This document shows positions 5,740 through 48,071 of a stretch of 64,000 nt of DNA, piece by piece. Origin of the DNA: Candidatus Omnitrophota bacterium. Its GTDB lineage: Bacteria; Omnitrophota; Gorgyraeia; Zapsychrales; Fredricksoniimonadaceae. The DNA is taken from NCBI GenBank assembly GCA_028865345.1, contig JAGWKL010000002.1, forward strand, positions 665-64,664, written 5' to 3'. Positions within the stretch are counted from its first letter, which is position 1; every line of letters begins with the position of its first letter. A model generated the notes under the pieces. It was given only the letters and a program-made list of their open reading frames with translations, had not been told where the DNA came from and did not search any database. Made by a program: the position numbers and the translations under genes.

Positions 5740-7014
5740 TCAGAACTTATACGTCAAACTCACCAACCCGATATTTATAAACTCACTATATTTCCCATCC
5801 ACCGTACCGGCGCTGCCGGCCGTCGACTTGGCAACTGAGTTGATAATGTTCCGTGTATCATAAAAAAGGATTGAATAGGCCACATCAAGTGTCAGGCGTT
5901 TAGTGATATCATAACCAAAACCTGTGGTATAACCGTTGGAATTGCTGTCCGGTATCCTCGGGTTAAAGGTGGCATCTGGGATAACCATTTCATGATGGTA
6001 ATAACCTAACCTTACACGAAAACGATCGTTGACATTATATTGGGTACCGATGGATTCAGACCATGCGGAATGCCAATCTGCGGGGGTGGGAGCAGCGAAA
6101 CCTAAAGTATTAAGGGTTGCACTGCCGTTGATGTTGATCGTCTGGTATTTCGTGCTGGACCAATCCACCCATGCCACATCAAGGTTAACCGTCCATTTCT
6201 TTGTAGGTTTGAAGCTATATCCTGCCACCACACTTTGAGGTAAAACCGACTTCTCGCTAACATTAGACACATAGGATGAAAAACCATAAGCAGTGGGATT
6301 AGCCCCGTTAATGCTCATTTTCCCCCGGTAATTGTGATTGATACGGCTGCGGTAGATCAAACCGATTTGATTTTTGTCATTGATTTTATACAGGGTCGCT
6401 ATACGGTATCCCCAAGCATCATCACCACCTTTAAGCTCGGCAATACCGATTGATCCGCCGTAACCATTAAGCGCAAAACTTTCATCCGCCTTTGATTCAT
6501 CGTTGTCCACGCTTGCGGCTATGGACCATTGCGGGGTCACTTGATACGAAAACGCCAGGGAATTATCAATGTCTGTAATGCTGGCCTGGGTTGTTGCATA
6601 CTCCAAAGGACTGTTAGGCCCCCAATTAGTGGCAGTGCCCCAATAAGAACCTGAACCAAAACCAATGCTTAATTTATTATTGACAGGCAAAACAGCGTAA
6701 AAATTGGGAATATTGAATTCATTGTTTTGCATGTGCACAGTATTTCCGTTTGGCTGTACCATATGGCCTCTGGGCGCAATAAGAGCATCTCCTACGGAAA
6801 TTTCCGGCCTGGTCATTTGATTCATACCGGCTGGGTTGTAGTACATGGCCGCAGGCGTATCCGCTTCACCGACAAAAGCCGAACCCATACCCATTGCACC
6901 AGCGTCGGGAACCTCTATATTATAGGCCCCGGAACCTGTAGCAAACGCACTCTGTCCCCAGGAAGTCATCAAAAACGCACAAAAAACGATGATGAATATA
7001 CGGAATAATGACAT
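5740..7014 (-). CDS. FadL/TodX-family outer-membrane beta-barrel protein, a channel for long-chain fatty acids or other hydrophobic compounds.
   Basis: It has a signal peptide and the N-terminal GAMGMGSAFVGEADTPAAMYYNPAG region typical of the FadL hatch domain. The amphipathic beta-strand pattern and the C-terminal YKF aromatic end are typical of OMP barrels. Confidence 0.65.
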   Translation of the reverse strand: MSLFRIFIIVFCAFLMTSWGQSAFATGSGAYNIEVPDAGAMGMGSAFVGEADTPAAMYYNPAGMNQMTRPEISVGDALIAPRGHMVQPNGNTVHMQNNEFNIPNFYAVLPVNNKLSIGFGSGSYWGTATNWGPNSPLEYATTQASITDIDNSLAFSYQVTPQWSIAASVDNDESKADESFALNGYGGSIGIAELKGGDDAWGYRIATLYKINDKNQIGLIYRSRINHNYRGKMSINGANPTAYGFSSYVSNVSEKSVLPQSVVAGYSFKPTKKWTVNLDVAWVDWSSTKYQTININGSATLNTLGFAAPTPADWHSAWSESIGTQYNVNDRFRVRLGYYHHEMVIPDATFNPRIPDSNSNGYTTGFGYDITKRLTLDVAYSILFYDTRNIINSVAKSTAGSAGTVDGKYSEFINIGLVSLTYKF

Positions 7015-35915: not shown

Positions 35916-38321
35916 CTATATGCGCGCTTTGGCTGAAATACGCATTTCATAAAAGGAGCGGATCAAAAAGAACAGGGCAACGCCAAAAAAGACAACGGCA
36001 AGAAAAATGTCAAGCCCCCGGCCCAAACCAATGGCAATTTCAATGGCCAGCAACCCAAACAAGGTCGTAAATTTGATGATCGGATTGATGGCCACCGATG
36101 ATGTGTCTTTAAAAGGATCCCCCACCGTGTCCCCGACCACCGTTGCCGCATGTAATTCTGTGCCTTTTTCCTGATACGTCACTTCTACCAACTTTTTAGC
36201 ATTGTCCCACGCCCCGCCGGCGTTGGCCATGAAAATGGCTTGAAAAAGGCCGAAAACGGCAATGGAGATCAGATAGCCTATGAAGAAATACGGCTCCAGA
36301 CAGGCGAAAGCAAGGGTCATAAAAAGCACGGCCACGAAAATATTGATCATCCCCTTTTGGGCGAACATCGTACAAATTTCTACGACCCTTGTACTGTCCT
36401 GTTTGGAGGATCTGTCTGTTCCTTCCAACTTGATATGTTCCTTGATATACTGCACAGTATGATAAGCCCCTGTGGTCACCGCCTGAATGGAGGCGCCGGA
36501 AAACCAGAAGATCATGCCCCCGCCGCTTAAAAGCCCGAGCAACAAAGGCGGATAAAGCACCGACATGTTCTCCATATGCACTGTGAGGCCGCGGGTTAAT
36601 ATCATAATGATAGAAAAAATCATGGTGGTGGCGCCAACCACGGCTGTCCCGATCAACACCGGCTTTGAAGTGGCCTTAAAGGTGTTCCCCGCCCCGTCAT
36701 TGGCTTCCAGATGATGTTTGGCAAGCTCGAAATTCGGCGTAAAACCGCTGGTCTTTGCGATTTCTTCCTTAATATTCGGAATGGCCTCGACAAGAGAGAG
36801 TTCATAAATCGACTGCGCGTTGTCGGAAACAGGCCCATAAGAATCAACGGCAATGGTGACTGCCCCCATCCCTAAAAATCCGAACGCCACCAGGCCAAAG
36901 GCAAACACCGCGGGTGCTATCATGATGGCATCCAACCCCATTAAACTGACAAAATAGCCTAAAGCCATCAGGACCACGATCACCAGCCCCATCCAATACG
37001 CGCTGTAATTCCCCGCCACCAGCCCGGAAAGGATATTCAGCGAGGTGCCACCCTTTTTGGAGCATTCGTAAATGTTCTTCACAAAATCCGAATTCATGGA
37101 TGTAAAGACCTTGATCCCCTCCGGAATGACGGCACCGGCCAAGGTGCCGCAGGTGATGATGGTGGCCAGCTTCCACCAAAACGTACCGTCCCCCAAATTC
37201 GGGATAAGGACATAGGAGGCCACATAGGTCAGGATGATCGAAAAAATCGAGGTGATCCATACCAGGGAGGTCAAGGGATCTTCAAAGTTCATTTCTTTAG
37301 CATTGGCATAGCGCCTTTTGGCAAAAAAATGGTTGATTTCATAAGAAAAACCGCTGGCGATCAGCATGATCAAACGCATGGAAAAGATCCAAACCAGGAG
37401 CTCTGCCTGGACCTGCGGATTTTTGACGGCCAAGAGAATAAAAGCGATGAGCGCCACTCCGGTCACCCCGTAGGTCTCGAAACCGTCCGCCGTGGGCCCA
37501 ACCGAGTCCCCCGCATTGTCCCCCACGCAATCGGCGATGACCCCCGGATTGCGCGCGTCGTCCTCCTTGATATTAAAAACGATCTTCATGAGATCAGACC
37601 CGATGTCCGCAATTTTTGTAAAAATGCCGCCTGCGATCCTCAGAACGGAGGCGCCCAACGATTCACCGATGGCAAAACCGATAAAACATGGGCCGGCATA
37701 GTTGGGATTAATAAAAAGAAGAATGCATAACATGACAAAAAGTTCAATGCTGATAAGGAGCATGCCGATGCTCATGCCCGCCTGCAAAGGAATGGAATAG
37801 ACCGGAAATGGTTTGCCTTCCAGGCTCGCAAAGGCGCAACGCGAATTCGCCAGGGTGTTGATCCTCATGCCAAACCAGGCGACACTATAGCTTCCGGCGA
37901 TACCGATGAGACTGCAGACTAAAATAAGAGCGACCCTGCCGGCGTCAAAATGGCGCAGCCAGCCGAAATAGGCCACCATGACACCCCCGATCAGGACCTC
38001 CAAAACCAGCAGGAACTTCCCCTGGGCAATAAGATATGCTTTACAGGTCGAATAAATGAGCTCGGAGATCTCTTTCATGCTTTGATGCACCGGCATCTTT
38101 TTCAATTGCCCGAACTGATAGATACCAAAAAATGCCCCGAAAGCGCAGACAATAAGACCTAACATCAATGCGGTGTGGCCGTTTAAGTGAAAAATAAGAG
38201 GAACCGAGGATAAATCAGGCACTATCAGGTCTGATTCGCCCGCCCAAGCTCCCGGAAGACCCAGAAAAAATGCCATGAACGTTAAAAGTCCAAGTCTATA
38301 AAACTTCTGACGACGGCTCAT
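35916..38321 (-). CDS. hppA: Membrane-bound H+-translocating pyrophosphatase, copy 1.
   Basis: H+-PPase signatures are present (GVIADCVGDNAGDSVGPTADGFETYGVTGVALI, DGAGNTFKATSKPV, DNAGGAWDNAKK). The GNTFKA motif has Lys rather than Ala, which suggests the K+-independent subtype. Confidence 0.9.
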   Translation of the reverse strand: MSRRQKFYRLGLLTFMAFFLGLPGAWAGESDLIVPDLSSVPLIFHLNGHTALMLGLIVCAFGAFFGIYQFGQLKKMPVHQSMKEISELIYSTCKAYLIAQGKFLLVLEVLIGGVMVAYFGWLRHFDAGRVALILVCSLIGIAGSYSVAWFGMRINTLANSRCAFASLEGKPFPVYSIPLQAGMSIGMLLISIELFVMLCILLFINPNYAGPCFIGFAIGESLGASVLRIAGGIFTKIADIGSDLMKIVFNIKEDDARNPGVIADCVGDNAGDSVGPTADGFETYGVTGVALIAFILLAVKNPQVQAELLVWIFSMRLIMLIASGFSYEINHFFAKRRYANAKEMNFEDPLTSLVWITSIFSIILTYVASYVLIPNLGDGTFWWKLATIITCGTLAGAVIPEGIKVFTSMNSDFVKNIYECSKKGGTSLNILSGLVAGNYSAYWMGLVIVVLMALGYFVSLMGLDAIMIAPAVFAFGLVAFGFLGMGAVTIAVDSYGPVSDNAQSIYELSLVEAIPNIKEEIAKTSGFTPNFELAKHHLEANDGAGNTFKATSKPVLIGTAVVGATTMIFSIIMILTRGLTVHMENMSVLYPPLLLGLLSGGGMIFWFSGASIQAVTTGAYHTVQYIKEHIKLEGTDRSSKQDSTRVVEICTMFAQKGMINIFVAVLFMTLAFACLEPYFFIGYLISIAVFGLFQAIFMANAGGAWDNAKKLVEVTYQEKGTELHAATVVGDTVGDPFKDTSSVAINPIIKFTTLFGLLAIEIAIGLGRGLDIFLAVVFFGVALFFLIRSFYEMRISAKARI

Positions 38322-41576: not shown

Positions 41577-43973
41577 TTAAGCTGAAATACGCATCTCGTA
41601 AAAAGACCGGACCAAAAAGAACACGGCAACTGTAAAAAAAACAGCCGCCAAAAATATATCCAGCCCCCGGCTTAACCCGATGGCGATCTCAATGGCCAGT
41701 AAGCCGAACAATGTCGTGAATTTGATGATCGGATTGATGGCCACAGATGAAGTGTCTTTAAACGGGTCCCCCACCGTGTCTCCCACCACCGTCGCCGCAT
41801 GCAATTCAGTGCCTCTCTCTTGGTATGTGACTTCCACGAGCTTCTTGGCATTGTCCCATGCTCCGCCGGCATTGGCCATGAAAATGGCCTGAAAGAACCC
41901 GAAGGCGGCAATGGAGATCAAATACCCTATAAAAAAATACGGCTCCAGGCAGGCAAAGGCGAGAGTGGTAAAAAGGACGGTCACGAAAATATTGATCATG
42001 CCTTTTTGGGCGAATACCGTGCAAATTTCCACCACCTTTTTGCTGTCCTTGGTGGAAGCCCTGCCTTCCTGGTCCAGCTTTATGTTTTCTTTGATGTATT
42101 GCACGGTGTGGTAGGCGCCGGTGGTCACCGCCTGGATGGAAGCCCCGGAAAACCAATAGATCATGCCGCCCCCGCTCAAGAGCCCAAGCAGGAATGGAGG
42201 ATAAAGTACGGATAAATTTTCCATATGGACCGTAAGGCCGCGGGTCAATATCATGATGATGGAAAAGATCATGGTGGTGGCCCCCACCACGGCCGTTCCG
42301 ATCAAAACAGGCTTGGCTGTGGCTTTAAAAGTGTTGCCTGCGCCGTCATTGGATTCCAGATGGTGCTTGGCAAGCTCAAAGTCAGGCGTAAAGCCATGGT
42401 CCCTGATGATCTCCTCTTTGATATGAGGAAGGGTCTCGATGAGAGAAAGCTCATAAATGGATTGTGCATTGTCGGAAACCGGCCCATAGGAATCAACGGC
42501 AATGGTGACCGGCCCCATGCCCAAAAATCCAAACGCCACCAGGCCAAAAGCAAACACCGCCGGTGCGATCATAATGGCATTCAGGCCAAGAGTACTGATA
42601 AAAGAAGCAACGGCCATCAGGACCACAATGACCACCCCCATCCAGTGGGCGCTGTAATTCCCCGCCACCAAGCCTGATAGGATATTAAGAGAAGCCCCTC
42701 CTTTTTTGGAGCTTTGATAAATGTTCTTCACAAAATCTGAATTCAAGGAAGTAAACACCTTGGTCCCCTCCGGTATGACCGCTCCTGCCATGGTGCCGCA
42801 GCTGATGATGGCGGCGAGTTTCCACCAGTAGGTGCCATCACCCAAAGATCGTATGAGGGCAAAAGAAGCCAGGAAAACCAGGGCGATCGATACGATGGAG
42901 GTGATCCACACCAGGGATGTCAACGGCGCTTCGAAATCCATGGTGTGAGTTTTTAAATAGCGCCTTTTGGCAAAAAAATTATTGATCTCGTAGGAAAGGC
43001 CGCTGGCGATGATCATGATGGTGCCGATGAAAAATATCCACACCAACAGCCTGGCCTGAACCAGGGGATTTTTAACAGCCAAAAGAATAAAGGAAATAAG
43101 CGCCACCCCGGTCACGCCGTAGGTCTCAAAAGCATCCGCCGTAGGACCCACCGAGTCGCCGGCATTGTCTCCCACGCAATCGGCGACCACCCCGGGATTA
43201 CGCGCGTCGTCTTCCTTGATGTTAAAAGCGATCTTCATGAGATCGGCGCCGATGTCCGCAATTTTGGTAAAGATCCCTCCGGCGACCCTCAGCACAGACG
43301 CGCCCAACGATTCACCAATGGCAAAACCGATAAAGCAAGGGCCGGAATAATCGGGGTTGATAAAAAGGATGATGCTTAACATGACGAAAAGTTCCGTGCT
43401 TATCAACAACATGCCGATGCTCATACCCGCCTGCAGGGGAATGGAATAAACGGGAAAGGGTTTGCCTGCAAGGCTTGCGAAAGCGCACCGGGCATTGGCC
43501 TTGCCGTTGATCCTCATGCCGAACCATGCCACGGCATAGCTTCCGGCGATGCCGATCAGGCTGCAGACTAAAATAAGAACGACTTTGTCGGCGTCAAAAT
43601 GCCGCAGCCATCCGAAATAGGCCACCATGACAGCACCGATCAAAACTTCCAGGGCAAGCAAAAACTTTCCCTGGGCGATGAGATAGGTTTTGCAGGTCGT
43701 ATAAATGAGCCGGGAGATATCTTCCATGCTTTTATGCACGGGCATTTTCTTCAAACGTGCGTACTGGTACATTCCGAAAAAGATGCCGAAAATGCATACC
43801 AAAAGCCCCAAGATGAGGGTCCTGCGGCCGTCCAAACCAAAAATGCCGGGTACAGCGGACAAATCCGGAACCTTCAAATCCGCCTCACCGGCCCATGCCG
43901 GCGAAACACCTGAAAAGAATGCCGCAAAAATTACAAACCAGGATTTACAGACCCCCGTCCACCGATTCTTCAT
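41577..43973 (-). CDS. hppA: Membrane-bound H+-translocating pyrophosphatase, copy 2 (paralog of 35916-38321).
   Basis: It has the same motifs as copy 1 and is collinear along its full length. Sampled aligned nucleotide stretches are about 88% identical. There is a ribosome-binding site 23 nt downstream of tRNA-Ser. Confidence 0.9.
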   Translation of the reverse strand: MKNRWTGVCKSWFVIFAAFFSGVSPAWAGEADLKVPDLSAVPGIFGLDGRRTLILGLLVCIFGIFFGMYQYARLKKMPVHKSMEDISRLIYTTCKTYLIAQGKFLLALEVLIGAVMVAYFGWLRHFDADKVVLILVCSLIGIAGSYAVAWFGMRINGKANARCAFASLAGKPFPVYSIPLQAGMSIGMLLISTELFVMLSIILFINPDYSGPCFIGFAIGESLGASVLRVAGGIFTKIADIGADLMKIAFNIKEDDARNPGVVADCVGDNAGDSVGPTADAFETYGVTGVALISFILLAVKNPLVQARLLVWIFFIGTIMIIASGLSYEINNFFAKRRYLKTHTMDFEAPLTSLVWITSIVSIALVFLASFALIRSLGDGTYWWKLAAIISCGTMAGAVIPEGTKVFTSLNSDFVKNIYQSSKKGGASLNILSGLVAGNYSAHWMGVVIVVLMAVASFISTLGLNAIMIAPAVFAFGLVAFGFLGMGPVTIAVDSYGPVSDNAQSIYELSLIETLPHIKEEIIRDHGFTPDFELAKHHLESNDGAGNTFKATAKPVLIGTAVVGATTMIFSIIMILTRGLTVHMENLSVLYPPFLLGLLSGGGMIYWFSGASIQAVTTGAYHTVQYIKENIKLDQEGRASTKDSKKVVEICTVFAQKGMINIFVTVLFTTLAFACLEPYFFIGYLISIAAFGFFQAIFMANAGGAWDNAKKLVEVTYQERGTELHAATVVGDTVGDPFKDTSSVAINPIIKFTTLFGLLAIEIAIGLSRGLDIFLAAVFFTVAVFFLVRSFYEMRISA

Positions 43974-43996
43974 AACTCCCTTTCTTTATTTAAGAA

Positions 43997-44081
43997 CGGA
44001 GAGGGTGAGATTCGAACTCACGGCCCCTTGCGAGGCAACGGTTTTCAAGACCGCCGCATTCGACCACTCTGCCACCTCTCC
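43997..44081 (-). tRNA. tRNA-Ser (anticodon UGA), type II with a long variable arm.
   Basis: Folded by hand: acceptor GGAGAGG/CCTCTCC; anticodon stem GCGGT/ACCGT with loop CUUGAAA (anticodon UGA); long variable arm; T-arm GTGAG-TTCGAAT-CTCAC; discriminator G. No CCA end is encoded. Confidence 0.8.
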
Positions 44082-44157
44082 AAAATTTAAAGAAATAATT
44101 TGGGCGTATACATAAAAAAGGATATATTAACAAAAGGTCCAAATCTTAACAAGAAAT

Positions 44158-45480
44158 ATGAAAACGTTCAAACCTTTTCCCTTACCTCTCCATGTGTCGG
44201 GCGTTTTCCTTTTCTCATTGATCTACTGGATTTTTCTGTCTCTGAAAAGTATTTCTGCCGACCTCATTGGTTATAAAACCTTGGGGTCTATCATTTACCA
44301 CCAAGGGTTGGTCGGATACGCAGCCACCGGGCTGCAACGTGAACCTCTCTATCCCCTGTTATGTTCCTTGGCCATGTATGTAGAACACTTAAGCGGTGTT
44401 AATTTCACTCATATCATGGCAGCTTTAAGCATCATCATGTTGATGATCTCTCAAATTCTAATATATGCCATTTTAAGAAAACTGAACATCCGCCCTTTGA
44501 TCTGTTCTTTAGTGCTGCTTTATTGGGCCGTATCGCCATGCATCACAGAATCCGCCTTTCACATATTATTATTTTGCGAAATCGTTACCTATCCCCTCAT
44601 TCTTGCCGTAATTATTTTCTCTTACCTCGGATGGGAATCTGTAAAAGAAAACGACAAAGGGGAGGCCTGCGCCTATGGAGCCCTTACAGGCCTTTTATTT
44701 GCATTGCTGACCCTCGTGAAAGCCGCATTTGAATGTATTTGCCCTGCCTATCTTATATTCTTTTTCCTGGGAGCCTTGCATAAAAATAAATTTTCCGCTT
44801 CTCTGATCTGTTTTCTGGCTGCTGCAGGCTTATTATTTTATTCTCCTATCGTTGGCTACAAATCTTTAAATAAAATGTATAATGGGCATTTTGCCGTTAC
44901 TAACAGGGGCGACTGGGCCTTTTATGGAGTTGCGGCCCACCGTGTAAGACCTCTCAAGAACTACCTCATCAATCTTGATTTCGTAATAGGCAACTGCGAG
45001 GCCTTTTTTCAATCATCAGCATGCAACTCTGTAAGTTCCGGTATTTCGGATAGTTTAGGGACACAAAAGGCGGCAGAATTGGCCGCCAAGCACATCCCGC
45101 CGCAAGCCGTCTCAAATACCCTTCTGCAGTTGTCCATCCAGAAAATCCTGTCCCATCCGTTTCAATATATTTTGTTATCAGCAACCGAAGGACTCAAAGC
45201 ATTATTTTGGGAAAACAACGCCGGTATCATTCCACTGCGGTTCATTATGCCTATCATTACATTCTTTGCGATCATTTATTGCTGTTTCAACTTTGCCCAA
45301 GCCCCCATTTTGATAAAAAACATTATGGCTATGATTTTCTTATTTGTTTTCTTTTATTCATTTTTTGACACTTTGGGCCGCTATTTTCTTCCGATTTCTT
45401 CCCTATACCTTATCAGCATCGGTTACTGCATGAATTCATTATGCAACTTTCTATCCCCTTCTAAAAACACTATAGTTTAA
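44158..45480 (+). CDS. Polytopic GT-C-type glycosyltransferase-like membrane protein (ArnT/PMT_2-like).
   Basis: About 12 TM helices. The N-terminal loop carries an REPLYPLL motif resembling the EKPPL signature of ArnT/PMT-family lipid-linked sugar transferases. Confidence 0.45.
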   Translation: MKTFKPFPLPLHVSGVFLFSLIYWIFLSLKSISADLIGYKTLGSIIYHQGLVGYAATGLQREPLYPLLCSLAMYVEHLSGVNFTHIMAALSIIMLMISQILIYAILRKLNIRPLICSLVLLYWAVSPCITESAFHILLFCEIVTYPLILAVIIFSYLGWESVKENDKGEACAYGALTGLLFALLTLVKAAFECICPAYLIFFFLGALHKNKFSASLICFLAAAGLLFYSPIVGYKSLNKMYNGHFAVTNRGDWAFYGVAAHRVRPLKNYLINLDFVIGNCEAFFQSSACNSVSSGISDSLGTQKAAELAAKHIPPQAVSNTLLQLSIQKILSHPFQYILLSATEGLKALFWENNAGIIPLRFIMPIITFFAIIYCCFNFAQAPILIKNIMAMIFLFVFFYSFFDTLGRYFLPISSLYLISIGYCMNSLCNFLSPSKNTIV

Positions 45481-45508
45481 TATATTTATAGGATTCTGCA
45501 CTCTATAT

Positions 45509-46144
45509 TTAGAACCTGCTTAAGGGGATCAAATCCGCAAAGTAAATGCAACGGGCGATGTCCGTGAGTTTCAATAATTGGGCAAGCCGGGCCAGGCCCA
45601 CTCCCTGGGACAATAATCGCCGGGCTAACACATAACGGGGCGTTTCTTTCGGCGGACGCGACGGAGGCCAGGGCAATAAACGCAGATGCAAACAGGGATT
45701 GTCATTGATAAAACCCAATGTAATGCCGAATTCCAGGACATCTCTTATCAAAAGCAGTGTCAGATTAAGGACCCTTGGGCGTAGTGCTCCGGCCAAACAA
45801 CGCTTGTATGATTCCAAAATGCCGGGTGATATTTGGGCCAGCCGGACGACCTGAGGGAAATCTGATTTAAGAAAACCGCTGAAATGTTCGATGGCGGCGG
45901 CGAAACGTCCGACCGTTCTGGAACTCTGCTGTTTCTGTATCTCGTCGATAAAACGCCCGAAAAAATCCGCCAGGTCGATATGACGGTCGATCGTCAGGGC
46001 CTCGCCGTGGGCGATTTTCTCTTCAACCTGGAATAATAGCCTTTGGGCTTGCTCCAAATCACCGCCGGCCATTTGGGAATAAAGCAGGCCACGGGCATGG
46101 AACTCGATATAGTAAACACCGTTGACCTTACGGATTTGACCCAT
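45509..46144 (-). CDS. Truncated tyrosine integrase: N-terminal arm-binding and core-binding (SAM-like) domains only, no catalytic domain.
   Basis: MGQIRKVNGVYYIEF is an arm-type DNA-binding N-terminus. It is followed by a core-binding-like helical domain. The ORF ends about 60 aa later, before the R-K-H-R-H-Y catalytic residues would appear. Confidence 0.45.
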   Translation of the reverse strand: MGQIRKVNGVYYIEFHARGLLYSQMAGGDLEQAQRLLFQVEEKIAHGEALTIDRHIDLADFFGRFIDEIQKQQSSRTVGRFAAAIEHFSGFLKSDFPQVVRLAQISPGILESYKRCLAGALRPRVLNLTLLLIRDVLEFGITLGFINDNPCLHLRLLPWPPSRPPKETPRYVLARRLLSQGVGLARLAQLLKLTDIARCIYFADLIPLSRF

Positions 46145-46446
46145 TAAGAAGTGAAGAAGATGATGTATAGAAGAGCGCCTATAACGGCAAAAGACAATAA
46201 ATAAAAATCGTTGAAATAAAAAAAGTCGCGCACGCGTTCGCCGAAACTGTATTCCGGAAGAGTATTCTCGGAAACGACCTGCCCCGTCGAACGGATATTG
46301 AGGACTTCATTGCGTTTAAGGCGCAGAAATTGATCGGCGATCTTGTAGGCCTGCAAACTGCCGCTTTCGATCAAATCCATGACCTTTTTTTCCGATACGG
46401 CCAGGATCTGCGCCGTCTCACGGACAGTAATGTATTGGCTGCTCAT
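46144..46446 (-). CDS. HTH_17 (excisionase/MerR-like) DNA-binding protein with a C-terminal TM helix.
   Basis: ITVRETAQILAVSEKKVMDLIESGSLQAYKI is an HTH_17 signature. The C-terminal FYLLSFAVIGALLYIIFF is a TM segment. Confidence 0.5.
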   Translation of the reverse strand: MSSQYITVRETAQILAVSEKKVMDLIESGSLQAYKIADQFLRLKRNEVLNIRSTGQVVSENTLPEYSFGERVRDFFYFNDFYLLSFAVIGALLYIIFFTS

Positions 46447-46961
46447 GATTTAACCCTGCTGACCAAGGCCCATTGTTCGATTTGGGAGCGCTCGAATTTC
46501 CAGCCGTCCCCTTCTTTGATCGCAGGGATCTTGCCGGTGGTGGCCAGTTCCACAATGGCCGGAATCTCAATTTCCAGATATTGTGCCAGGTCATCGATGC
46601 TCAAAATATCCTCCAGCATGTGGCAATGTCCCTGGAAAATAGCCCCTTCGACGATGTTCAATTTAGGCGTTGAAATATCCCCGTGCACAACAGCCGAGGG
46701 CATAAGAACAAGCATCTTTTTGGCGACAATATTGCCCTTGATCTTTCCGGCAACGATGACATTTTCGCCGATGATGTTGGCTTCCACCTGAGAGGTCGGC
46801 CCGATGGTCAGGGTGCCGCGGGCATCCAGCTTGCCCGTGTAGCGGCCCTGGATCTTTAAATTCACGGGGTCGCTGAAAGTCAAGGTCCCTTCCATTTGGG
46901 CATTGATCTCAATGACTTTTTCTTCAGCGGCGTCTTTATGCTCTTTGCGGTTAAAGGCCAT
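46443..46961 (-). CDS. Bactofilin (DUF583) fused to a C-terminal HTH_17-like DNA-binding domain.
   Basis: The bactofilin beta-helical repeat region (GTLTIGPTSQVEANIIGENVIVAGKIKGNIVAKKMLVLMPSAVVHGDISTPKLNIVEGAIFQG) is followed by LSIDDLAQYLEIEIPAIVELATTGKIPAIKEGDGWKF, which is excisionase-type HTH-like. Its stop overlaps the next start by 4 nt. Confidence 0.65.
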   Translation of the reverse strand: MAFNRKEHKDAAEEKVIEINAQMEGTLTFSDPVNLKIQGRYTGKLDARGTLTIGPTSQVEANIIGENVIVAGKIKGNIVAKKMLVLMPSAVVHGDISTPKLNIVEGAIFQGHCHMLEDILSIDDLAQYLEIEIPAIVELATTGKIPAIKEGDGWKFERSQIEQWALVSRVKS

Positions 46962-47048
46962 AGAAGGCTCCTCCTTGTAAAATTAAAAATAGATACTATT
47001 GATTCACATTAATTATATCAAAACTTATCCTGGGGCAAAAAATAAAAC

Positions 47049-48071
47049 TTAATTGTTATTATGCCAGTGGTACGCCAATCCGGCGATCATAGCCGCGTTA
47101 TCCAGGCACAACACCATGGGCGGGAAAAACACATCCACCCCCTGGACACCGGCGCGGGCCTGCACAAGGCGCCTTAAGGCGGAATTGGCCGCCACCCCGC
47201 CGCCGACCAAAAGAGTATTGACCTTGAACTTACGGCAGGCCTGCAGGGATTTTTCCGCTAAAACAGCTACTACGCTTTCCTGAAAGGCATGTGCCACCTG
47301 GGCGGCGGAATAATCCGGCTTGAGACCATTTCTCTGGACATAATAAAGCACCGCCGTCTTGGTGCCGCTGAAAGAAAAATCCCAGCCTCCTTTCATGGGC
47401 GCTGGGGGAAACTTGATCCCTGAAGAGGCCGCCTCCCTTGAATTACAGGGAACCGCCCCCTTTACGCCGGCCGCCAAACGGTCGATCGCAGGGCCGCCGG
47501 GATAACCCAAACCCAGAATACGCGCCACCTTATCAAAGGCTTCCCCGGCCGCATCATCGCGGGTTGTGCCCAGCAACTTAAACTTCCTGAAATTCTCGAT
47601 ATAAAAAAGGCTGGTATGCCCGCCGGAAACAACCAGTCCCACGGCCGGCAGACGGTTTTGAGGGCAAGCCGCCTTTTCACCGGAAAGCTGCACATAATTC
47701 GCATATAGATGGGCCTTGATGTGGTCGATCTCCACAAGAGGTTTGTTTAAAGCATGGCTTAAACCCCTGGCGAAACAAAGACCAACCAAAAGAGAACCAA
47801 TGAGCCCCGGAGCGCGGGTGACGGCAATGGCATCAATATCTTCAAACGTCATCCGGGCGCTCTTCAAACTCTCAGCCACGACCCCGTCAATAAATTCGAT
47901 CTGGCGGCGGGAGGCGATTTCCGGGATGATGCCGCCGTAAGCTTCATGCTCCTTAAGGCTGGTGGCCACGACGTTGGAATGCACCCGTACACCGTCCTGC
48001 ACGACAGCCGCCGCCGTCTCATCACAGGAAGTTTCAATACCTAAAATAGTCAACGGGATAGACGTCTTCAT
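47049..48071 (-). CDS. tsaD: tRNA N6-adenosine threonylcarbamoyltransferase.
   Basis: The N-terminus ILGIETSCDETAAAVV and the Kae1/TsaD metal-binding His pair are present. Confidence 0.9.
   Translation of the reverse strand: MKTSIPLTILGIETSCDETAAAVVQDGVRVHSNVVATSLKEHEAYGGIIPEIASRRQIEFIDGVVAESLKSARMTFEDIDAIAVTRAPGLIGSLLVGLCFARGLSHALNKPLVEIDHIKAHLYANYVQLSGEKAACPQNRLPAVGLVVSGGHTSLFYIENFRKFKLLGTTRDDAAGEAFDKVARILGLGYPGGPAIDRLAAGVKGAVPCNSREAASSGIKFPPAPMKGGWDFSFSGTKTAVLYYVQRNGLKPDYSAAQVAHAFQESVVAVLAEKSLQACRKFKVNTLLVGGGVAANSALRRLVQARAGVQGVDVFFPPMVLCLDNAAMIAGLAYHWHNNN

Follow-up and report, generated by a model that had tools for sequence, protein, structure and literature searches.

What is a domain of a DNA-binding family doing at the C-terminus of a bactofilin? 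The question is raised by a locus in a 64,000-nucleotide stretch of DNA from a Candidatus Omnitrophota bacterium (contig JAGWKL010000002.1, positions 665 to 64,664), which was analyzed as a whole and is called the window here. Gene 1 (46443..46961, reverse strand) encodes a bactofilin that continues into a winged helix-turn-helix (wHTH) domain, and gene 2, directly downstream (46144..46446, reverse strand), encodes a second wHTH on a C-terminal transmembrane (TM) helix. Bactofilins are widespread and few of their client systems are understood; a link to the chromosome is known only indirectly, through PadC and ParB of Myxococcus. A first-pass annotation of the window had read the fusion as a direct tether of DNA to a polar or membrane filament. 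Here we show that the fusion and its partner are a conserved chromosomal module of the uncultured phylum Omnitrophota. For its function we tentatively prefer, as one possibility, a two-protein scaffold anchored in the membrane, in which the acidic wHTH on the bactofilin would dock on the wHTH of the partner and any DNA would be reached through the partner or through a third protein.

A bactofilin core and a winged helix in one polypeptide

Gene 1 begins at an ATG codon and encodes 172 aa arranged as a tail and two domains. The short tail (aa 1-15, MAFNRKEHK...; 46917..46961, on the reverse strand like all parts of the module) is basic at its start and predicted to be disordered, with a model confidence (pLDDT) below 50 for aa 1-13. 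The Pfam family Bactofilin (PF04519) matches aa 16-113 (46623..46916) with E 1.9e-24 and 86.2 bits against a cut-off of 27.9, and HTH_17 (PF12728) matches aa 120-165 with E 1.7e-7 and 31.8 bits against a cut-off of 27. The second match lies within a C-terminal wHTH of the HTH_17/excisionase/MerR-like type at aa 119-166 (46464..46607), where the NCBIfam model TIGR01764 ('excise') also scores above its cut-off (29.8 versus 28.8). Both Pfam families were matched in all 31 members of the fusion family that were scanned, and automatic database names for the homologues follow one domain or the other, being either 'polymer-forming cytoskeletal protein' or 'excisionase family DNA binding protein'.

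An AlphaFold2 model of the fusion, computed from an alignment of the 31 family members, has a mean pLDDT of 84 and exceeds 90 across the beta-helix. In the model the beta-helix spans aa 16-115 and is followed, after three residues, by a wHTH of the order beta-alpha-alpha-beta-beta-alpha (strand 119-121, helices 122-129 and 133-142, strands 148-150 and 153-157, helix 158-171). When the halves were compared with the PDB by Foldseek, the first matched BacA (2n3d, TM-score 0.83) and the Thermus bactofilin (6rib, 0.76), both normalized to the target. The second half matched RdfS, BldC, Pukovnik Xis, Tn916 Xis and the GIsul2 excisionase with target TM-scores of 0.6-0.75, and RacA and CbpM were likewise among its matches. 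Profiles and folds are thus in agreement with the two domains that the first-pass annotation had assigned to this gene.

From its sequence the bactofilin half looks functional. Phe109 of the fusion aligns with F130 of BacA and F105 of the Thermus bactofilin in profile alignments with PDB entries 2n3d and 6ria, the latter being the F105R crystal form, and a change of these residues to Arg abolishes polymerization (for BacA F130R, PMC12448750). Across the fusion family this column is Phe, with Leu, Ile or Val in a few representatives, and the fusion would be expected to polymerize as other bactofilins do. The tail bears a partial likeness to the membrane-targeting consensus of bactofilins, MFSKKKK (PMC12448750): it has Met1, a Phe at position 3 rather than 2, and the basic pair Arg5/Lys6. 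Close relatives keep MAFNR[KR], and distant members have a short basic M-x-x-[KR] tail alone. Membrane targeting through the N-terminal tail is possible but unproven. The fusion lacks a C-terminal amphipathic helix; its N-terminal tail, the partner's TM helix or both may supply a tether.

A tail-anchored partner

The ATG of gene 2 (46446-46444) overlaps the TGA of gene 1 (46445-46443) by 4 nt, as ATGA, by which the two genes are translationally coupled. The gene 2 product has 100 aa. Its wHTH (aa 5-51, 46294..46434) is matched by HTH_17 over aa 5-49 (30.3 bits versus 27) and by TIGR01764 (33.8 versus 28.8), and is followed by a variable linker, a juxtamembrane motif, DFFYFNDFY (aa 74-82, 46201..46227), and a hydrophobic helix (aa 81-99, 46150..46206; 19-residue Kyte-Doolittle mean 2.27). 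Because a single residue follows the hydrophobic segment, we regard the helix as a tail anchor. The first-pass annotation was therefore right about an overlapping downstream gene with an HTH_17 domain and a TM helix.

A database search returned 564 partner homologues of about 100 aa, and a hydrophobic C-terminus is common to all partners examined. The DFFYFNDFY motif matches no Pfam family; it is kept from homologues that are 85% identical down to locus L021 at 43%, and is absent in L024 only. Recent paralogy of the two wHTH domains was considered and rejected, since BLASTP finds no significant similarity between them.

Fusion and partner form a conserved module of Omnitrophota

A search of 5.8 billion proteins returned 679 relatives of the fusion. 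Among the best 120 of these, identities run from 67 to 100%, nearly all proteins have 169-176 aa, all but two carry both Pfam domains, and those with a named source come from Candidatus Omnitrophica/Omnitrophota metagenome-assembled genomes (MAGs). The wider family was surveyed with a HMMER scan of 1.84 billion representatives clustered at 50% identity, which yielded 11,640 bactofilin-like proteins. Among the best 150 of those, about 18 full-length clusters, plus fragments, extend through the wHTH, and the fusion is therefore a small and specific branch of the bactofilin family. GTDB genomes yielded 21 fusion loci with identities from 85% down to 43%, all in Omnitrophota MAGs, several of which carry the record label 'uncultured Planctomycetales'. 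The distribution of the architecture, a point raised in the first-pass annotation, thus extends to hundreds of homologues within this phylum.

A gene of about 100 aa for an HTH_17 domain and a TM helix directly follows the fusion in 21/21 of the GTDB-genome loci. When all 29 loci collected (L001-L029) were combined with the window they gave 27 distinct locus types, and in 25 of these the partner lies immediately downstream of the fusion (the window, L001-L021, L024/25, L028 and L029). The surroundings of the pair are less constant. A block of gatB, ctpA, a divergent polysaccharide deacetylase gene and tsaD lies upstream of the pair in 17 of the 21 (the deacetylase was undetected in L016); L004 and L006 are cut within this block, and no part of it is seen in L014, L017 or L021. 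Elsewhere the pair is flanked by an MgtC-like gene upstream (L017, L019), genes for SPOR and PDZ proteins (L024), GreA downstream (L029) or SIS/cytidylyltransferase genes (L028). Because the pair stays together while the flanking genes differ, the two-gene pair is the unit under selection, and identities of 70-85% across many species indicate that this selection is strongly purifying. Overall, fusion and partner are a conserved chromosomal module of the phylum Omnitrophota.

The conservation bears on one further explanation, by which the locus is the decayed cargo of a mobile element, with an Xis/Int remnant that was joined to a bactofilin by chance: excisionase-type domains, an adjacent integrase N-terminal half (gene 3, below) and a tRNA-Ser gene 1.4 kb beyond it fit such an origin, but the same gatB-ctpA-deacetylase-tsaD synteny in 17 MAGs at fusion identities from 85% to 50%, intact reading frames of constant length in all but one locus (L001, where the partner is frameshifted), hundreds of full-length homologues and a PADLOC scan without a significant match effectively refute it for the present locus, and we rejected a mobile-element remnant at the tRNA-Ser for the same conserved housekeeping synteny.

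The two winged helices are complementary in charge

The fused wHTH of the window has a net charge of -5 and an isoelectric point (pI) of 4.3. In 29/31 family representatives the domain ranges from -1 to -6 (pI 4.2-5.3), and with HMM-defined bounds every locus copy except those of L026/L027 falls between -2 and -6 (pI 4.1-5.2). For comparison, the aligned segments of BldC, Pukovnik Xis and RacA carry about +6, +4 and about -1, respectively, and an unrelated HTH_17 protein in L021, the sole such protein in the fetched loci, carries +8. The acidic residues are conserved. Nine columns of the fused wHTH are acidic in at least 60% of the 31 members (118, 123, 124, 130, 132, 138, 150, 157 and 162), with Asp or Glu placed at the N-terminus of helix 1 (123, 124), in the HTH turn (130), at the N-terminus (132) and middle (138) of helix 2, and in the wing (150). 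Four columns are conserved as basic, K144, K149, K155 and R158, all in the wing/strand region.

The wHTH of the partner is neutral to basic. In the window it has a net charge of +1 and a pI of 8.3. In 18 aligned pairs the partner domain ranges from 0 to +5 (pI 6.9-10) where the fused domain ranges from -3 to -5; with the narrower HMM-defined bounds and all loci, the partner values are -2 to +4 (pI 5.5-9.8). Eight basic columns are conserved in the partner (R9, K20, K21, K35, R42, K44, R45 and R52). The two wHTH domains of the module are therefore complementary in charge, acidic on the polymer and neutral-to-basic on the membrane anchor.

Does the fused winged helix bind DNA?

The best solved relative of the isolated fusion wHTH in a profile search of the PDB is RacA, which anchors the chromosome in Bacillus (E 3.5e-4), followed by BldC and the Xis of mycobacteriophage Pukovnik. 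The contacts of RacA with DNA are known from published structures: Lys15 and Arg19 of the recognition helix contact bases and Arg30 of the wing contacts phosphate, with most phosphate contacts coming from the N-termini of helices 1 and 2 and from the wing (PMC4914108). The RacA K15A and R30A proteins still bind DNA, but only weakly, their Kd being put at about 50 uM (PMC4914108), and DNA binding is abolished by RacA R19A and by the equivalent R18A in RicO of Staphylococcus (bioRxiv 10.64898/2026.03.06.710092).

In the HMMER alignment K15, R19 and R30 of RacA correspond to Pro134, Glu138 and Lys149 of the fusion. Column 138 is acidic in 77% of the 31 members, while column 134 is not conserved. 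We looked for the essential Arg of RacA and RicO at the aligned position and found it in neither protein of the module, Glu138 taking its place in the fusion and Asp24 in the partner. Several of the conserved acidic columns fall in regions that RacA uses for phosphate contacts. Furthermore, the family shows variation at the exposed positions of the recognition helix, so that no conserved DNA target is evident for the fused domain. Charge and contact residues together argue against a canonical DNA-docking mode, which we consider unlikely, without disproving DNA binding.

These observations bear most directly on the proposal that the bactofilin-fused wHTH itself binds DNA, specifically or not, with the many weak sites along a polymer giving avidity. 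The fusion would then be a RacA-like tether in a single polypeptide, with the bactofilin replacing both coiled coil and DivIVA. HTH_17 and TIGR01764 both score above their cut-offs in all fusion members scanned. The nearest solved relatives, RacA, BldC and Pukovnik Xis, bind DNA, two of them (RacA and BldC) by coating it cooperatively. Of the four conserved basic residues, K149 aligns with R30, a residue that RacA needs for DNA binding, and the outlying fusions P0258 and P0400 have a basic wHTH with a pI of 9.9. Charge alone is also not decisive, since the aligned segment of RacA is itself only about -1. Against these points stand the acidic charge of nearly every copy, the conserved Asp and Glu where RacA contacts phosphate, Pro and Glu at the K15 and R19 equivalents, the variable recognition helix, and the lack of a repeated or conserved operator-like motif at the locus. 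On this evidence we think a direct tether unlikely. The analogy with ParABS-type anchoring drawn in the first-pass annotation is reasonable, in that the closest solved relative is a chromosome anchor, but DNA binding by the fused domain, the other part of that proposal, is left unsupported by an acidic domain with Pro134 and Glu138.

A third gene in the clade of the window resembles half an integrase

In the window the pair is followed by gene 3 (45509..46144, reverse strand), which shares 1 nt at its start with the gene 2 stop codon and is translationally coupled to gene 2. It encodes a basic protein of 211 aa (pI 9.6) with parts resembling the arm-binding and core-binding domains of lambda Int. 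The Pfam family Phage_int_SAM_5 scores 20.9 bits, just under its cut-off. The AlphaFold2 model (pLDDT 88) consists of a three-stranded sheet with a helix, a four-helix domain of the SAM-like kind and, at the C-terminus, three short helices, and its best Foldseek matches in the PDB are structures of full-length lambda integrase (1z1b, 1z1g and 5j0n), over the arm-binding and core-binding domains. A Pfam search of gene 3 for the catalytic domain PF00589 gave no match, and the model has no tyrosine recombinase catalytic part. There are 168 homologues, found in close relatives of this genome only, and nearly all of the 120 listed have 211-228 aa. A tblastn search recovered the gene in 10 relatives, at loci L001, L003, L004, L007-L011 and L014, where the fusions are 79-85% identical.

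Lambda Xis contacts the N-terminal domain of Int and cooperates with it. In the clade of the window the operon can thus be read as combining two Xis-type domains with the DNA-binding half of an Int, none of them catalytically active, which hints at a DNA-architectural role for the assembly. The gene 3 product may be a domesticated DNA-architectural protein.

Locus L001 differs from the others in this region. Its partner (6516-6769 of CAVYLG010000003.1) matches in two frames, with a frameshift near codon 43, and its gene 3 homologue has shrunk to a 17-aa match, as a result of either assembly error or decay in that genome.

A membrane-anchored scaffold as a tentative model

The arrangement that we tentatively prefer, and regard as possible rather than probable, is a two-protein bactofilin scaffold anchored in the membrane. 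The gene 1 product would be the polymer, with its canonical beta-helix, retained polymerization Phe and short basic N-terminal tail. The gene 2 product would be the integral membrane anchor, its tail-anchored helix preceded by DFFYFNDFY as a putative interfacial motif. The acidic fused wHTH would serve as a docking module for the neutral-to-basic wHTH of the partner and might also bind the basic gene 3 protein where that is present, in the clade of the window. The partner and gene 3, and not the fusion, would account for any DNA contact, and the outcome would be that a nucleoprotein complex or a chromosomal region is kept at the membrane along a bactofilin polymer. The design logic would be that of RacA, RocS and RicO, in which a wHTH, self-association and a membrane tether are combined, spread here over two polypeptides.

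There is precedent for winged helices of this type as protein-binding modules. The Foldseek matches of the fused domain include the MerR/Xis-type folds of CbpM bound to the J-domain of CbpA (3ucs) and of the PICI protein Rpp (6hn7). In B. subtilis the bactofilins BacE and BacF bind the HTH regulator BacR, keep it at the membrane and suppress its DNA binding (PMC13649987).

Several observations weigh against the docking scaffold. The closest solved sequence relatives of the fused wHTH all bind DNA. The partner has Lys at the RacA K15 and R30 positions and Asp or Glu at the R19 position in 89% of members, which makes DNA binding by the partner itself uncertain. BLASTP, as said above, finds no significant similarity between the wHTH domains that are proposed to interact. 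In one outlying lineage, represented by the proteins P0358 and P0411 of loci L022 and L023, the fused wHTH is acidic and no tail-anchored partner accompanies it. Finally, tblastn did not find gene 3 in L002 and L005, which are as close to the window as the loci that have it, nor at any locus with a fusion identity of 73% or less. Because L002, L005 and the distant genomes keep the pair without it, gene 3 cannot be essential or core to the module.

A related reading, which we hold to be doubtful, would make the module a bactofilin-based kinetochore-like apparatus of the Omnitrophota, which are mostly ultra-small members of the PVC group. The polymer and the tail-anchored wHTH protein would pin a chromosomal region to the membrane, aided in some clades by a domesticated lambda-Int/Xis-type set that lacks the catalytic domain, and the acidic wHTH, by mimicking DNA, would be a dock or switch for its basic DNA-binding partner. 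On balance we lean against the view that the module is a bactofilin-based chromosome anchor.

A protein scaffold or a regulatory switch as less likely alternatives

DNA might be absent from the function of the module altogether. Both wHTH domains would then be protein-interaction modules, and the assembly a morphogenetic scaffold comparable to MreB-RodZ that positions envelope enzymes or other clients. In that comparison the membrane protein would hold the polymer through its cytoplasmic HTH. HTH folds that bind proteins are known from RodZ with MreB and from TorI with TorR, and the Foldseek matches to CbpM and Rpp are of the same kind. What characterized bactofilins recruit is mostly cell-wall enzymes or membrane proteins (PMC12448750, PMC13393453). 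Additionally, both wHTH domains of the module have an acidic residue at the position of RacA R19, and the neighbors include envelope genes, namely the ctpA protease gene and the divergent polysaccharide deacetylase gene, with SPOR and PDZ proteins in L024. This linkage is weak, since the envelope neighbors are not retained in L017, L021, L028 and L029. The charge of the partner wHTH is moreover typical of a DNA binder, with the K15- and R30-equivalent basic residues kept, and gene 3, in the clade of the window, encodes a DNA-binding-type protein. We consider a scaffold with no connection to DNA distinctly unlikely.

In a third proposal one or both wHTH proteins are transcription factors, perhaps autoregulators of the operon, whose access to DNA is set by sequestration at the membrane or polymer, so that expression is linked to the state of the scaffold or envelope. 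BacR of B. subtilis offers the model: it is encoded with bactofilins and is held at the membrane, its DNA binding being lost in the bound state (PMC13649987). The module likewise forms an operon with what appears to be its own promoter. A covalent fusion and an integral tail anchor would, however, need proteolysis for release to the nucleoid. DUF4004, the family of BacR, had no Pfam match at E up to 1 in any of the three proteins, and no conserved operator-like repeat was found upstream. A switch of this kind seems to us improbable.

Outlying lineages

Two lineages depart from the common arrangement. In L023 (290-5567 of a contig from JGI 3300009777) and L022, the fusion is 28% identical to that of the window and lies downstream of genes for a Volactin-family actin homologue, a ParA/MinD-like ATPase that includes an AMPK1_CBM domain, and a pair of unannotated proteins, each of about 217 aa. 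These loci may represent a cytoskeletal gene cluster of another kind.

The fusions P0258 and P0400 (L026, 5001-5558, and L027) form the sole lineage with a basic fused wHTH, at a net charge of +4, and have no HTH-TM partner. They lie a few kb from genes for a complete tyrosine integrase and a DUF1016 protein, and may be a DNA-binding version of the fusion carried on a mobile element. A further protein, P0284 (231 aa), was found through the wHTH part of the query; it is built from a tandem of three HTH_17 domains, whose recognition helices are basic in the canonical way, and lacks a bactofilin domain.

Regulatory DNA and neighborhood of the module

In the intergenic region between tsaD and gene 1 (46962..47048, reverse strand) a pattern match places an extended -10 element at 47012-47020 (TGATATAAT); an AAGGAGG ribosome-binding site is also present. 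A strict promoter-like element of the form TTGAC/G-N14-20-TGTTA(T)A(A/C) was present upstream of the homologous gene in 7/20 related loci, with looser forms in others, and the upstream regions thus appear to carry a sigma-70-type promoter with an extended -10. A scan for promoters and terminators did not rise above shuffled expectation. As to a conserved DNA motif nearby, which the first-pass annotation had raised, the 20 loci yielded promoter elements only and no operator-like repeat upstream of the gene 1 homologues, and the repeats within 45400-47100 were short two-copy, chance-level matches in coding sequence.

L003, L007, L008 and L011 have a GC-rich hairpin (e.g. ccccgcctgg...ccaagcagcgggg) that separates the conserved promoter from the ribosome-binding site and is about 20-60 nt upstream of the bactofilin start. 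The hairpin could be a regulatory or stabilizing element of the 5' untranslated region. The window has no such hairpin.

The surroundings of the module in the window are housekeeping genes, among them gatA, gatB, ksgA, pdxA, surA-like, mfd-like, secDF and trpE, and two H+-pyrophosphatase genes. An open reading frame of 801 aa (35916-38321, reverse strand) was identified by Pfam as an H+-translocating pyrophosphatase; about 3 kb from it, one of 798 aa (41577-43973, reverse strand) is pyrophosphatase-like from its sequence and served as a synteny probe. The only tRNA gene of the window, tRNA-Ser(TGA), is at 43996-44082 (reverse strand). Adjoining it, on the forward strand (44158-45480), is a gene for a 440-aa polytopic membrane protein without a Pfam match. 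L003 has a homologue of this protein at a distance of a few kb from the module.

Two other identities were rejected. A MADS defense system was suggested by an NCBIfam MAD1 match of 42.9 bits, well below its cut-off of 80; the neighbors are housekeeping genes, and the mad1 hit in PADLOC (E 0.001, 17 bits) was not significant. A match of the partner to the magnetosome protein MamR (NCBIfam, 23 bits versus a cut-off of 100) reflects generic HTH similarity.

Comparison with known systems

The closest parallel in design is found in RacA, RocS and RicO of the Bacillota, which combine a small MerR-type wHTH with a self-associating module and a membrane tether. Their tether is either DivIVA or an amphipathic helix, for which a TM domain can substitute (bioRxiv 10.64898/2026.03.06.710092). 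These proteins self-associate by a coiled coil, whereas the fusion has a bactofilin beta-helix and its model contains no coiled coil. The order is reversed, with the polymer first and the wHTH last, and the functions are divided between two genes that each encode a wHTH. The Arg that is essential in RacA (R19) and RicO (R18) is Glu in the fusion and Asp or Glu in the partner, and the fused wHTH is acidic. Since coiled coil and essential Arg are both missing, and the module belongs to the Omnitrophota in the PVC group rather than to the Bacillota, we conclude from the first two of these differences that it is not a member of the RacA/RocS/RicO family.

BacR (YhbD, DUF4004) with BacE and BacF of B. 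subtilis is similar in that an HTH protein shares an operon with bactofilins, which bind it physically and keep it at the membrane (PMC13649987). BacR, however, is a separate soluble protein that can move to the nucleoid, whereas here one HTH is covalently fused to the bactofilin and the other is integral to the membrane. In Myxococcus xanthus the BacNOP scaffold positions a DNA-segregation complex through PadC and ParABS (PMC5703909). That link consists of separate adaptors, PadC and ParB, with ParB-type domains, and involves neither a wHTH fusion nor a tail-anchored partner; parAB genes were not found beside the module in the window or the related loci.

The fusion shares the PF04519 beta-helix, the polymerization Phe and the short basic N-terminal tail with canonical bactofilins such as Caulobacter BacA, the Thermus bactofilin and CcmA, which differ in having short disordered C-terminal tails where the fusion has a structured wHTH. 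With the excisionases of lambda, Tn916 and Pukovnik, and with RdfS, the module shares the wHTH fold and family, and gene 3 corresponds to the arm- and core-binding half of lambda Int. Unlike these systems, the module has no catalytic recombinase or mobile element, its chromosomal position is fixed, and its wHTH domains sit on a polymer or a TM anchor. RodZ, finally, resembles the partner in crossing the membrane once, in its cytoplasmic N-terminal HTH and in being paired with a cytoskeletal polymer. In RodZ the HTH is of the XRE type, a periplasmic domain is present and the polymer bound is the actin-like MreB, while the partner has an HTH_17 wHTH, no extracytoplasmic domain and a bactofilin as the polymer.

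Significance for bactofilins and the Omnitrophota

Full-text literature searches on fusions of bactofilins with HTH, excisionase or DNA-binding domains found no paper describing a bactofilin-wHTH architecture, in line with the statement of the first-pass annotation that no characterized example was known. Nothing published on the cytoskeleton of the Omnitrophota was found in the searchable literature, and the compendium paper on the phylum makes no mention of FtsZ, MreB or a cytoskeleton. What is new is the unprecedented structured domain at the C-terminus of a bactofilin, together with its dedicated partner in the membrane, and not a new category of system.

In this module a bactofilin is covalently joined to a domain of a DNA-binding family and accompanied by a membrane-anchored second copy, among housekeeping genes. 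The covalent fusion, the membrane partner, the conservation across the phylum and the housekeeping setting make it a compact two-gene system that can be tested heterologously. It bears on how a polymer that is independent of nucleotides is coupled to the membrane, on whether that polymer is also coupled to DNA, and on whether excisionase-type wHTH domains can be reused as protein-protein couplers. If the kinetochore-like reading were true, the fusion would be the first case of a bactofilin that is wired directly to domains of a DNA-binding type, and the principle seen in RacA, RocS and RicO would have been invented independently. For the Omnitrophota themselves, the module is a first handle on their cell biology.

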